From a virus (taxonomy: Duplodnaviria; Heunggongvirae; Uroviricota; Caudoviricetes), in IMG/VR virus record IMGVR_UViG_2541047844_000002, positions 1 through 7,281 of that record: a stretch of DNA of 7,281 bases; one strand, written 5' to 3'. The position numbers and the translations under genes are program-made. Shown here one piece after another: positions 1 to 5,255 of this stretch (position 1 is its first letter; the number at the start of each line of letters is the position of its first letter). Below the pieces are notes generated by a model that saw nothing but the letters and a program-made list of their open reading frames with translations, was not told the origin of the DNA and made no database searches.

Positions 1-14
1 TTGGTTTGGGAGAA
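1..14. other. Partial left recombination site (central dinucleotide plus inner half-site); outer half lies upstream of the window
   Basis: TT-GGTTTGGGAGAA is the exact reverse complement of 1857..1870. Confidence 0.65.
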
Positions 15-353
15 GCGGCTAAAAGGAATGTAGGGACAGGGGCGAATCAGATACCTGATATGGGTAGCTTCACGCTTTCTGTTTCAGGTACTGGATATCA
101 AAAATTACCATCAGGTTTTATTCTTCAGTGGGGCTCAATCGGCGCACCAGGCATTGCACAGGATGTAGTAACCCATTTCCCGATTGCATTTCCAAACAGA
201 TGTCTGCGTGTTTTGGTCTCACAAGACTACACACCAGATAGCGGGGCTGTTGGTTATATTGCCTGTGCAGGTTTTAGTCCCGACCCGGTTAAATTTATAT
301 CCAGAGCCAGTACTCCTGGCCTCGGCGCTTCATTTTTAGCGTTAGGCTGTTAA
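3..353 (+). CDS. Alternative tail-fibre C-terminal variable module (silent orientation, no own N-terminus); would fuse to H residues 1-276 after inversion
   Basis: The open frame runs from the window start in frame with the half-site codons G-L-G-E, matching the GLGE junction in H. The TTG start at 6 in the ORF track is probably an artefact. The fibre-tip-like sequence is followed 21 nt later by a tail-fibre-assembly gene. Confidence 0.7.
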
Positions 354-374
354 TTTAGCTATATGGAGTGAAAA

Positions 375-815
375 ATGAATTACATATATTCCGCGACTAC
401 AAACTCTTTCTATCCGCTGGAGATGAAAGAGGATTACACTCAAGCTGACTCATGGCCAGATGATGCTGTTGAAGTTGATGAGCAAGTGTATATTGAGTTT
501 TCCGGATTACCGCCGAAAGGAAAAATCCGTATCGCTGGAGAAAATGGTTTTCCTGCATGGTCTGAAATTCCACCACCAACACATGAGGAACAAATTGCTG
601 CAGCCGAATTGGAGAAGCAGCAATTGATTAATCAGGCCAACGATTATATGAACAGTAAACAATGGCCTGGTAAAGCGGCTATTGGTCGTCTGAAAGGTGA
701 CGAACTGGCGCAATATAATTTGTGGCTGGATTACCTGGACGCACTGGAACTGGTCGATACTTCCGGTGCGCCAGATATTGAATGGCCTACGCCTCCGGCA
801 GTTCAGGCCAGATGA
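375..815 (+). CDS. Tail fibre assembly protein (chaperone for the alternative fibre tip), P2 G / Mu U family
   Basis: 146 aa. A GGAG-like RBS (ggagtg) precedes the ATG. The C-terminal motif LDYLDALELVDTSGAPDIEWPTPP parallels LDYIDAVTATDTSTAPDVIWPELP in the convergent chaperone. Confidence 0.8.
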   Translation: MNYIYSATTNSFYPLEMKEDYTQADSWPDDAVEVDEQVYIEFSGLPPKGKIRIAGENGFPAWSEIPPPTHEEQIAAAELEKQQLINQANDYMNSKQWPGKAAIGRLKGDELAQYNLWLDYLDALELVDTSGAPDIEWPTPPAVQAR

Positions 816-1389
816 CATCCGGCGCGGTGCTGGTATCTGTTGCCGTCACCGCGTCAATGTAATCCAGCACAGCGTTAAGTCGGGTTGTTTCTGCCTGCGT
901 CAGTTTACGTCCGGCCTGCAATCTCAGTTGAATCAGACTGATGGAAGCCATTGCAGTATCAATCAGCGACTGGCGCTGTGCTTCTGCTGCATCTACTGCG
1001 GCGCTATGCTGTGTCTCGGTATCCGTCACCCATTTCTCACCATCCCATTTATCGTATGGCGTTGATGGGGCGATAGTGGTTGTATTTTCAGGGTAATCAC
1101 CCGGAGCGGTGATTTCTTTTGATTCTCCTGTTTCGGTGCTATAGACCGTTTCACCGCGATGATCTGGCACATATTCCCATGAGTTAAAATCTGCAGAACG
1201 GCAGATTGCATAACCAGCCTTATGTGTGCCAGGGGCATCTAAACAGGAATATGCAGGGATACCGACACCAATGGCAAGATATTCATTTGAAGTAGAAATA
1301 TATTCCCGAGTTTTACCATCATAGTTATAGACGGTAATATTCCCCGCCTTCGTGGCAATAAGCTCGCTATTTAATACGGCGTTATCCAT
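787..1389 (-). CDS. G: Tail fibre assembly protein (chaperone for the currently expressed fibre tip), P2 G-like
   Basis: 200 aa. Its start overlaps the H stop by 1 nt (TAATG). It carries the conserved C-terminal chaperone motif and sits where G sits after H in P2. Confidence 0.85.
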   Translation of the reverse strand: MDNAVLNSELIATKAGNITVYNYDGKTREYISTSNEYLAIGVGIPAYSCLDAPGTHKAGYAICRSADFNSWEYVPDHRGETVYSTETGESKEITAPGDYPENTTTIAPSTPYDKWDGEKWVTDTETQHSAAVDAAEAQRQSLIDTAMASISLIQLRLQAGRKLTQAETTRLNAVLDYIDAVTATDTSTAPDVIWPELPEA

Positions 1390-2696
1390 TATGCAGCCCT
1401 CACGATATAGTTAAATGCAATATTTCGTGGACGGGTTTCACTCCCGCCAGTATTACCGATACTCCCTCGTGAATGAAGTGTCGGTGATGGGATCAGACTC
1501 CCTCCTGTATTTGTGGCATCAAGTCCCCGTCCTTGTGTGTATGTCTTTTTGAAAATCGTAGCCAGTTCCCATTCATCTTTTGTGTCGTAACCATCATTGG
1601 CAACAACAATATGGCGGTGTTTTTCCAGCATCCCTGTCTGAATGCTCAATAAAACACGTCCTGCATCAATACCGCGCCCGTCATCCCAGCCACGAATAAA
1701 CTCACCACGTAAATCAGGCAATTTATTTGTCGGATAAGCCTTTGCCAGTTCCGGGTATTCTTCAGCAGAAAAAGCCGCACCGTTGCATTTCAGCCAGCCT
1801 GTTGGCGGTGTGGCTGAAGGCCATGGAACGGGCACACCAACAGGTAATGCAGAGCCTTCTCCCAAACCAAGGTATGTGAGAAGACCAGCTATATCCTTTC
1901 CACTCAAATGAGTCAGCGTCTCATCCAGTGGCTGCTTACCTGACAGCGCATTGTTAATGGTGGTGCTGAATTTCGGGTCATTGTTAATGGCTGCGGCAAT
2001 TTCTTTCAGTGTATCCAGCGTGGCAGGCGCACCGTTAATCAGAGCGGTAATAGCGGCCTGAACAAACTCAGTGGTCGCAATCCGCGTGGTGTTATTTCCT
2101 GCGGCAGGCGTCGGCGCTTTTGGTTCTCCGGTAAATGTCGGATTATGTTTCTGCGCATACTGGGTATGAGGATCCTGTGCGGCAATGTGGTTTCTCATCT
2201 GGTCATCCACATACAGCCTTAATTCCAGGACTTCATCATCCACGTATTTACGGGTCGCCAGTACCACCGACGGATCGATTTTCAGCGTAATAGCTTCGGT
2301 ATTCGTGACAACCAGAATCATGCGGATAGTCTGGGTACGACCACTGCCTTCCTGCAACTGCGGTTTGTACGTTTCCGGGCAGTTCGCCACCGCAATGAGT
2401 ACGCCTTCATCATCATAAAGCCCAATCTCACGGATCCAGAATCCGCCCTCGTTCTCAGGGATGATTTGCTCCGCAATAATCTGGCTCTGGTTGTTCGGGT
2501 CAACGCTCAGAAGATTCAGCGGCGCGATGCGTTTCTGGTTAATAAGTTTTGTCTGTGCCGGGTCTGGTGTCGGCAAGACACCATTTGCATCACCAACGGC
2601 CATTTGCGTCAGATTCAGCTTACTGCCGAGCATCGTCGCGTTAGCCAGCCGTGCCGCGCCCTGATTAGTCAGAATGGCGTAGTATTTCACTGTCAT
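1389..2696 (-). CDS. H: Tail fibre protein, P2 gpH-like (435 aa in current orientation); constant N-terminal part 1871..2696, variable C-terminal part 1389..1868
   Basis: The N-terminus has the gpH/Mu S-type conserved pattern (MAVGD..G.LP.P, GGFW.RE.GLYDD.G.LIAVAN, YKP...EGSGR.Q). The C-terminal part has a tail-collar-like motif (PTGWLKCNGAAFS..YPELA......LPDLRGEFIRGWDDGRG). Start overlaps the gpI stop (ATGA). Confidence 0.9.
   Translation of the reverse strand: MTVKYYAILTNQGAARLANATMLGSKLNLTQMAVGDANGVLPTPDPAQTKLINQKRIAPLNLLSVDPNNQSQIIAEQIIPENEGGFWIREIGLYDDEGVLIAVANCPETYKPQLQEGSGRTQTIRMILVVTNTEAITLKIDPSVVLATRKYVDDEVLELRLYVDDQMRNHIAAQDPHTQYAQKHNPTFTGEPKAPTPAAGNNTTRIATTEFVQAAITALINGAPATLDTLKEIAAAINNDPKFSTTINNALSGKQPLDETLTHLSGKDIAGLLTYLGLGEGSALPVGVPVPWPSATPPTGWLKCNGAAFSAEEYPELAKAYPTNKLPDLRGEFIRGWDDGRGIDAGRVLLSIQTGMLEKHRHIVVANDGYDTKDEWELATIFKKTYTQGRGLDATNTGGSLIPSPTLHSRGSIGNTGGSETRPRNIAFNYIVRAA
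1857..1882. other. 26-bp site-specific recombination (crossover) site inside tail-fibre gene H, hix/gix/cix-like
   Basis: TTCTCCCAAACC-AA-GGTATGTGAGAA has a 12+2+12 layout and closely resembles hixL as I recall it (TTCTTGAAAACC AA GGTTTTTGATAA). It encodes residues Y-L-G-L-G-E (275-280) of the fibre, at the junction of constant and variable parts. Confidence 0.7.
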
Positions 2697-3304
2697 GCGT
2701 TTACTCTCAGGTTATCAATTAAATGAATGGCCGAGGCCGGGAAATAATCCCCTCCGACAATAATGGCCTCCGGGGTGTAGGGATAAACCGTCAGGGCGTC
2801 GCCGTGATAGCATCCCGCACCAGCAAAAATGTTGCCGGTTGTACTTAAACTGATAGCCAGTCCCGTCAGATGGCGGCTTGCAGGTTTTGCATCAGCAACG
2901 AGACGCTCCAGCTCCTGATACATTTCCTCGGTAATACCCTGCTCAAGCACGCCAACAACGATACGGAACGTCCCCGGCTCCTCGTTGAGTTGCCACCACT
3001 CCCTCACCTCAATCAGATAGCCGAGCGGCTCCACCACGCGCCGGATTGCGCCTATAGTGCCCTTATGGCAGTGAATGAAATACGCATCGCGGATAACAGC
3101 GCGTTTTGTCGCTTCCGGCCATTTATCATCCCAGCGGTCAACCGAAAATGACCACGCCAGCCACGGCAGCAGATTTGCCGGGCAGGTGTCCGGGTTCCAC
3201 AGCTCACGAATACTGACCGGCGTTTTTTCAATTTCCGCACAGGCTTTTGCGGCGGCAACTTCAAGCGGTGATGAGCCGGTCGGCAGCAGTCGCGAATCAC
3301 TCAT
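2693..3304 (-). CDS. I: Baseplate assembly / tail protein I (P2 gpI-like)
   Basis: 203 aa. It lies between J and H as in P2 and is translationally coupled at both ends (8-bp overlap with J, 4-bp with H). Confidence 0.8.
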   Translation of the reverse strand: MSDSRLLPTGSSPLEVAAAKACAEIEKTPVSIRELWNPDTCPANLLPWLAWSFSVDRWDDKWPEATKRAVIRDAYFIHCHKGTIGAIRRVVEPLGYLIEVREWWQLNEEPGTFRIVVGVLEQGITEEMYQELERLVADAKPASRHLTGLAISLSTTGNIFAGAGCYHGDALTVYPYTPEAIIVGGDYFPASAIHLIDNLRVNA

Positions 3305-4205
3305 CCGAGCCTCCGGTCACAACGCGGTATTCGGTACAGAAAGACGCCTGCGTACTGTTGAGCACGATGTCGGCCAGCGGTGCAGCCAGTTCGACACGCT
3401 GCACGCCTTCCACATGCAAAGCGGCATAAATGGCAGACAGACGGATGTCGCGCCCCAGCCGGTGCTGTGCCGTGATGTACGCTTCCAGTTTTTTCACGGC
3501 AGCAGCGCGGATGGGTTCGCTTTCGGGACCAGGGTAAAGGTAAAGCGTGGCGTTTATCTGGTATTCAACGATGGCGGCAGACTGCACGGTCACGCGGTCG
3601 GCCACCGGCCTGACGTCCTCGCCATTAAGGGCGTTACGCACCACCGCCAGCAGGTCTTCGGATGCCACACCGTTATTTTCACGTGACAGCACAGAGATGG
3701 TGACACAGGCAGGAGACGGACTGGTGACAGAGATATCCGCGACACGCCCGTCGGCACTGCGACCATGATACTGATAGGCTCCCACCGACCCGGCGACGCT
3801 TAAACCTTCAAACGCCTGCTGAATACGCAGACGATAATCGGTGTCAGACTCCATCACTGCCGGTGTCGGCGGAATGGTCGAATCATCTGCCGGGGTGATA
3901 ATCAGGCGCGTGGTGTTGTAATTGGCACCAATCACATCAAGGTCATTACCGGCGGCACAGGCCAGCATCACCGCCCGTGCGGCCTCATTCACACGCTGAC
4001 GCCAGATAAGCTCACGATAAGCATTTTCCTCCAGCAGTTTGACGAGAGGCTCAGATTCCAGCGTCAGGGTACGGGCGACCGCCTCCTGCTGGTCTTCCGG
4101 GTAAAGGGAAATCAGTGTCGCCTTGCGTTCGGCAAGAATGGTTTCAAAGTCCAGCTCCTCGACCACATCCGGTGCGGGTAGCTGGTTCAGGTCGATAATC
4201 GGCAT
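3297..4205 (-). CDS. J: Baseplate assembly protein J (P2 gpJ-like)
   Basis: 302 aa, the size I recall for P2 gpJ. It lies between W and I. Confidence 0.85.
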   Translation of the reverse strand: MPIIDLNQLPAPDVVEELDFETILAERKATLISLYPEDQQEAVARTLTLESEPLVKLLEENAYRELIWRQRVNEAARAVMLACAAGNDLDVIGANYNTTRLIITPADDSTIPPTPAVMESDTDYRLRIQQAFEGLSVAGSVGAYQYHGRSADGRVADISVTSPSPACVTISVLSRENNGVASEDLLAVVRNALNGEDVRPVADRVTVQSAAIVEYQINATLYLYPGPESEPIRAAAVKKLEAYITAQHRLGRDIRLSAIYAALHVEGVQRVELAAPLADIVLNSTQASFCTEYRVVTGGSDE

Positions 4206-5189: not shown

Positions 5190-5200
5190 AACGGGAAGGA

Positions 5201-5224
5201 TGCCGCCGGGTCATACCGGCGGCA
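5201..5224 (-). terminator. GC-rich hairpin between S and V (possible terminator of the upstream late operon or structure over the V translation start)
   Basis: Perfect 9-bp inverted repeat TGCCGCCGG-gtcata-CCGGCGGCA. It lies 32 nt after the S stop and 12 nt before the V ATG. No clean U-tract follows on the sense strand. Confidence 0.3.
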
Positions 5225-5255
5225 ATGTGACGATGAGGTGTCGGGAATGGCACAA

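Follow-up and report, generated by a model that had tools for sequence, protein, structure and literature searches.

Tail-fibre switches of the Gin/Pin type entered the textbooks in the 1980s, and the biological weight of a further example is small for that reason. In E. coli K-12, the P segment of the e14 element with its invertase PinE is attributed to Plasterk and van de Putte 1985, as cited in PMC4272514. Using sequencing and PCR, Goldberg et al. found that both orientations of the e14 segment coexist within cultures of MG1655, and that two P2-like prophage loci of EPEC E2348/69 likewise occur in both orientations (PMC4272514).

The DNA studied here (the window, meaning the whole stretch that was analysed, 7281 bp) is the late-gene region of a P2-like E. 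coli prophage, ending in a 1.87-kb invertible tail-fibre segment. Its switch is a member of the long-known Gin/Pin/Cin/Hin family, for which cases in P2-like E. coli prophages are already published (PMC4272514). We consider it very probable that bases 1–14 are half of the left crossover site of such a Gin/Pin/Cin/Hin-type tail-fibre switch, with the invertase gene lying just outside the window. That an invertase should be found there had been proposed in an initial annotation made from the sequence alone, and this prediction of a neighbouring gene proved correct in every relative examined.

Our comparison draws on related loci, designated here by L numbers. Close relatives are 97–99.2% identical over the whole window, the value of 99.2% being reached by draft assemblies, and complete E. 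coli genomes are colinear with window positions 1–2700 at identities of up to 97.7%. Between the window and either of two relatives, L004 and L010, just 1–3 positions differ over window 1–3400.

The tail-fibre gene H and its two C-terminal modules

The minus strand of the window carries the genes LysA, LysB/LysC, R, S, V, W, J, I and H, followed by the gene for a 200-aa chaperone. This is the P2-like late order LysA-LysB/LysC-R-S-V-W-J-I-H-G, which continues with the sheath gene FI; in relatives, the sheath, tube, tape-measure, D and ogr genes come after the invertase. Pfam families for the identical late gene set were found in L074 and L004.

Two side observations concern the prophage as a whole. 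The S–V intergenic region of the window (5190–5255) is a 66-bp gap with no gene, and relatives have varied cargo genes at this place: L007 encodes a 508-aa protein with faint Pfam hits to AAA and TIR, L001 has a hypothetical protein of 246 aa, and the products in other relatives range from 261 to 357 aa. The gap looks like a prophage cargo or defence hotspot. In addition, the same fibre and invertase block is found on non-chromosomal records of 66–216 kb in complete E. coli assemblies (NZ_CP018956.1, NZ_CP104682.1 and NZ_CP146689.1), which suggests P2-like elements on plasmid-like replicons, or else unplaced contigs.

The tail-fibre gene H consists of a constant N-terminal part, common to both orientations in L023 and L024, and a variable C-terminal part, while a second, silent C-terminal module is located at the left edge of the window on the opposite strand (Table 1). 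The silent module lacks its own start codon and lies in frame with the crossover, such that plus-strand reading from base 3 carries on the H frame across the core (...LLTYLGLGE|AAKRNVG...). Because bases 3–353 continue the H frame, a flip would give H an alternative C-terminus. Indeed, a simulated flip of bases 3–1868 yielded a 392-aa H ending in the Gp53-like_C domain, and the flipped genomes L024 and L067 carry annotations of the fused H. With a constant N-terminus and two in-frame tips that are placed head to head, each with its own chaperone, the locus has the architecture of a tail-fibre host-range switch of the Mu G, P1 C and e14 P type. The gene for the 200-aa chaperone shows about 90% DNA identity to e14 tfaE. 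The two chaperone genes converge, their 3′ ends overlapping by 29 nt at 787–815, and e14 tfaP and tfaE are arranged likewise.

Table 1 Features of the invertible tail-fibre segment and its crossover sites. Coordinates are window positions unless a related locus is named.
Feature	Position	Strand	Remarks
H, tail fibre, whole ORF	1389–2696	-	Phage_tail_fib and Collar (Pfam)
H, constant N-terminal part, about 271 aa	1883–2696	-	Pfam Phage_tail_fib, aa 1–150
H, variable C-terminal part, now expressed	1389–1856	-	Collar domain, aa 287–334
Silent alternative H C-terminal module, 116 aa	3–353	+	Gp53-like_C, PF21882, E = 3.7e-15
Tail-fibre assembly chaperone, 146 aa, paired with the silent module	375–815	+	Caudo_TAP, E = 1.5e-37
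Tail-fibre assembly chaperone, 200 aa, TfaE-like, paired with the expressed module	787–1389	-	Caudo_TAP, E = 5.1e-33
Core crossover dinucleotide TT of the left site	1–2		Complementary to AA at 1869–1870
Inner half-site GGTTTGGGAGAA of the left 26-bp site	3–14		Reverse complement of 1857–1868
Right 26-bp crossover site, inside H, codons about 272–280	1857–1882		Homologous to the H-side site of relatives
Contigs breaking at the crossover	Ends of L071, L072 and L076		Independent assemblies; the window scaffold stops at the core itself

Two observations on this block stand apart from the switch itself. RefSeq records give the silent, promoterless tip as a free-standing 130-aa "gp53-like domain-containing protein" (L001:4961-5353, L023:7961-8353). 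The annotated 130-aa ORF begins 40 nt before window position 1, with its start codon in the invertase spacer, and extends to window position 353, passing through the crossover site. The silent tip is routinely mis-annotated in this manner, as a free-standing "gp53-like" gene across the crossover site, and the call of a free-standing gene is probably an annotation artefact. Separately, a relative 99% identical to the window carries an IS66-family element with three ORFs within the 200-aa chaperone gene (L006:7475-10234, AP025747.1).

Crossover sites and the invertase gene in relatives

The 14-mer TTGGTTTGGGAGAA is present only twice in the window, at 1–14 on the plus strand and at 1857–1870 on the minus strand, and a repeat search of the window detected it as a 15-nt inverted repeat with 100% complementarity (1–15 versus 1856–1870). 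Matches to the 14-mer were seen in 0/200 dinucleotide-preserving shuffles, and we reject a chance match on the basis of these shuffles together with the exact natural flip between GPEC1209 and GPEC1210 described below. A multi-site, shufflon-like layout was likewise rejected, since the site is present in only two copies in the window. At its H end, the repeat is part of a 26-bp near-palindrome at 1857–1882, TTCTCCCAAACC AA GGTATGTGAGAA, which is two mismatches off a perfect dyad and has a chance expectation of 0.

The initial annotation held that the window edge cuts the left recombination site, so that the core dinucleotide and the inner half-site alone lie inside the window. Our data agree on both counts: bases 1–14 are an exact inverted copy of 1857–1870 within H, and they comprise the TT core at 1–2 and the half-site at 3–14. 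The edge does cut the site as described, but it is no arbitrary window cut, being instead the end of a scaffold that falls at the crossover core. On the plus strand the cores read TT at the left site and AA at the right site, and the two sites are therefore in inverted orientation; bases 1–2 are the final two bases of a Leu codon CTT, which the H frame completes after inversion. The locus accordingly shows the Din-family arrangement of two inverted 26-bp imperfect-dyad sites with matching 2-bp cores, the outer half of the left site being seen in relatives only.

This outer half-site, TTTTCATAAACG with one variant TTTTCTTAAACG, is located in relatives immediately 5′ of position 1, where the annotation had placed it, and completes the 26-bp site. 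The pattern TTTT C(A/T)T AAACG was found in 25/25 fetched loci with a complete left site. In the same 25 loci, a serine recombinase gene follows after a 67-nt spacer. This gene occupies about −68 to −661 on the opposite strand, is directed away from the segment, and opens with MLIGYVRVSTNDQ.... Among these 25 ORFs, 22 are complete at 197 aa, two run off the fetched DNA and one has a nonsense codon. The contiguous arrangement of invertase, site and silent tip (1400-nt query) was found in 98 complete E. coli genomes, and the best 60 E. coli matches are all annotated with a "recombinase family protein" adjoining a "gp53-like" gene.

The relatives' protein contains the Pfam domains Resolvase (PF00239) and HTH_7 (PF02796), with Ser9 present. 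Alignment with Mu Gin gives 79% identity over 184 aa (E = 6e-95), with Ser9 and Met114 in common with wild-type Gin (Met114 being the wild-type Gin residue, PMC3575834), and 157/184 residues (85%) are identical in e14 PinE. An adjacent Ser9/10 recombinase with resolvase and helix-turn-helix domains, as expected for a Din-family switch, is thereby seen by proxy, in relatives only, the gene lying beyond the window. Most of what had been predicted for the invertase holds in these relatives. The gene was expected within a few hundred bp upstream and lies 68 bp beyond position 1 in 25/25 of them; it was expected outside the segment and beside the silent module, and the gene order is so, as in Mu and e14; and the N-terminal resolvase domain and C-terminal helix-turn-helix are both in place. 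The predicted size of 180–190 aa was too small, the actual length in relatives being 197 aa. A scan of the spacer and the invertase gene found no sigma-70 consensus promoter. A search of genome contigs for related loci returned 80 distant invertases from other phyla, and Salmonella hin and the E. coli loci were absent from this set.

The enhancers of Gin, Cin and Hin reportedly lie within the 5′ end of the invertase gene, in work said to go back to Kahmann, to Huber and to Johnson and Simon, all in 1985. At the corresponding end of the relatives' invertase gene, we noticed two G...C 15-mers that are 49 bp apart, at nt 22–36 (GTGTCAACAAATGAC) and nt 71–85 (GCGCAGGATGCGAGC), the first of these candidate Fis sites being centred about 97 bp from the crossover centre. 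A block, TCAACAAATGACCAG, is invariant in 7/7 sequences aligned with Mu and e14, and the shorter TCAACAAATGACCA is invariant in 5/7 diverse invertase genes. Synonymous-site conservation across seven invertase genes is 0.52 at the enhancer versus 0.44, a weak signal that ranks 16th of 112 windows. By homology and position, and by analogy with the described systems, a Fis-dependent enhancer at the invertase 5′ end is likely.

These elements can be assembled into a proposed mechanism. The 197-aa serine invertase, most like e14 PinE and Mu Gin and presumed to be encoded 68 bp beyond position 1, would bind as dimers to both 26-bp sites and cleave at the central AA/TT, after which 180-degree subunit rotation and religation would leave bases 3–1868 flipped. 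In the present state, the N-terminal 276 codons of H would be joined to the Collar-type tip and its 200-aa chaperone; in the silent state, they would be joined to the Gp53-like tip and its 146-aa chaperone. The receptor specificity of the phage would be expected to change with the tip. By analogy with Hin and Gin, synapsis would be expected to require supercoiling of the DNA together with an enhancer, bound by Fis, within the first ~90 bp of the invertase gene.

Inversion in relatives and the end of the scaffold

The sibling E. coli genomes GPEC1209 and GPEC1210 (L023 and L024) share their source, and their prophages occupy one and the same chromosomal place. In an 18.7-kb comparison, the two differ at 1426 positions, all of which lie between the repeats; with the equivalent of window 3–1868 reversed, there are 0 differences over the same 18.7 kb, and the exact boundary of the flip falls inside the repeat. 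Since the two are identical once exactly this segment is flipped, the switch is active. Among complete genomes (colinear coverage of at least 80% each), 40 have the orientation of the window and 28 are flipped, and the drafts L019, L061 and L067 are flipped as well. Real inversion at the sites, a further Din-family feature, is therefore observed in relatives, both in the L023/L024 pair and in the 40 versus 28 genomes.

To place the end of our sequence in this context, the window has to be viewed as an assembly product. It is the entire scaffold KE701101.1 of GCA_000459475.1, stored in reverse orientation, and it is identical to the stored copy apart from one N in the latter. Three other contigs end past the first core base, by 141 nt (MEGAHIT k141), 55 nt and 30 nt (Logan contig). 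A de Bruijn graph that branches at two alternative neighbours would leave an overhang of exactly k (or k-1) nt. Our scaffold probably stops at the core since two continuations faced the assembler at that point, which could reflect the presence of both orientations or a second copy of the module or its flank in the genome.

That the scaffold ends at the core since the sequenced culture held both orientations is quite possible, though somewhat less likely than not. The switch would then be flipping in the source strain. A somewhat doubtful but serious alternative is that the scaffold end is unrelated to inversion, arising from low coverage or from a repeat of the invertase flank elsewhere, as in e14 or a second P2-like prophage; its coincidence with the core would then carry no information. 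The e14 element shares the 26-bp site and is 81% identical in its invertase region, matching places per E. coli genome have a median of 1–2 and number up to 12, and the junction 1870/1871 is unbroken in the same scaffold, all of which is consistent with an unrelated break. Such a break, however, would have to fall base-exactly where the two possible continuations diverge, and contigs of independent assemblies break off at a distance of exactly k (or k-1) nt from the first base of that core. If both orientations were indeed present in the culture, contig ends of draft assemblies that coincide exactly with short inverted repeats, or lie exactly k nt past them, could provide a cost-free, genome-wide detector of active invertible segments. 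Draft assemblies break at such switches; when a contig ends in a fibre gene or an invertase, the partner contig should therefore be sought rather than the gene taken as absent.

A further question is whether the switch is frozen in the source strain, with the sites and both modules kept and the invertase mutated, deleted or replaced, in which case bases 1–14 would be a relic, or would be used only with an invertase acting in trans, such as e14 PinE. We regard this as improbable, although natural examples are found among relatives. In L003 (L003:8764-9357, GCA_023055925.1), the invertase carries TGG -> TAG at codon 61 (W61 to stop); in L017 (L017:9800-12700, CP019256.1), the silent tip and invertase are replaced by an IS26-type/aac(3) block; L059 is without the whole segment; and the source record itself ends at position 1. 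Against these cases, the invertase is intact in 22/23 relatives readable to the gene end, all of the 60 top E. coli matches have a recombinase annotated beside the silent module, the window shows no damage in either site or either reading frame, and a scaffold end exactly at the core fits two junction contexts in the reads. Judging from sequence comparison, the source strain likely, but not certainly, has an intact invertase, as the gene carries a nonsense mutation in one relative and is missing from another.

The exceptional relatives merit description in their own right. L003, with 98.2% identity to the window and an identical H protein, is a natural switch knock-out. The block in L017 consists of two IS26-type transposase genes around an aminoglycoside acetyltransferase gene (PF02522), i.e. 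a resistance cassette in a P2-like prophage. In L059 (L059:12640-12800, GCA_900447915.1), a precise deletion has removed the whole invertible segment. A hybrid site, TTCTCACATACC AA CGTTTATGAAAA, fuses the constant part of H to the invertase flank, with the two cores as endpoints, and H ends after 278 aa. Serine invertases should not delete between inverted sites, and the L059 deletion stands in contrast to this expectation.

It is extremely improbable that the 14–15-nt inverted repeat is a mere coding motif (LGLGE) of two diverged, opposed fibre-gene copies: the repeat does fall in coding sequence, and a YLGLGE flanking peptide is common to both modules, but the repeat ends exactly where the module boundary falls, it fits the 26-bp Gin/Pin site layout and is identical to the e14 site, the base-exact natural flip bounded by these repeats refutes the idea in relatives (GPEC1209/GPEC1210), the precise deletion in L059 has its endpoint at the same cores, and both orientations are common among complete genomes.

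Comparison with described switches

With an active inversion system in its relatives, the window can be set beside the described members of the family. The e14 P segment has the same order of elements, namely fibre constant part, tip, chaperone, inverted chaperone, inverted tip and invertase, and its pinE-proximal 26-bp site is identical to the invertase-side site of the relatives, TTCTCCCAAACC AA CGTTTATGAAAA. Its tfaE/stfE part has about 90% DNA identity to window 638–1439 and 1638–1882. However, e14 is a defective lambdoid element, whereas the window is a P2-like (Peduoviridae-type) late region; PinE has 184 aa, compared with 197 aa for the relatives' invertase, which has a 13-aa C-terminal extension; and the second tip of e14 is StfP, where the window has the Gp53-like module.

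The G segment of Mu carries alternative S/S′ tips with U/U′ chaperones, similar to the paired modules of the window, and gin is located just outside the segment, beside the silent tip, as is the relatives' invertase. The Mu site gixR, TTCCTGTAAACC GA GGTTTTGGATAA, aligns with the relatives' site, and the 5′ ends of the genes align closely. In contrast, the gix core is GA and the core here is AA, the G segment measures about 3 kb compared with 1.87 kb for the window segment, and the fibre modules and phage family of Mu differ from those of the window.

EPEC E2348/69 provides a P2-like prophage with, as here, an invertase by inverted repeats in the fibre gene (PMC4272514). Against a query consisting of the invertase plus the silent module, it shows 86.6% identity over 93% of the query, i.e. 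about 13% divergence. At one of its loci there are three repeats and four variants, as against two sites in the window.

Hin/hix of Salmonella flagella and Cin/cix of P1 use the same recombinase subfamily, 26-bp sites and a 2-bp core. The Hin enhancer, which comprises two Fis sites, is situated about 100 bp from the nearest site, hixL (PMC3798978), and the candidate here lies at about 97 bp, a likeness by description. Hin is encoded inside its own segment and flips a promoter, whereas in the relatives of the window the invertase lies outside the segment and it is a coding module that is flipped.
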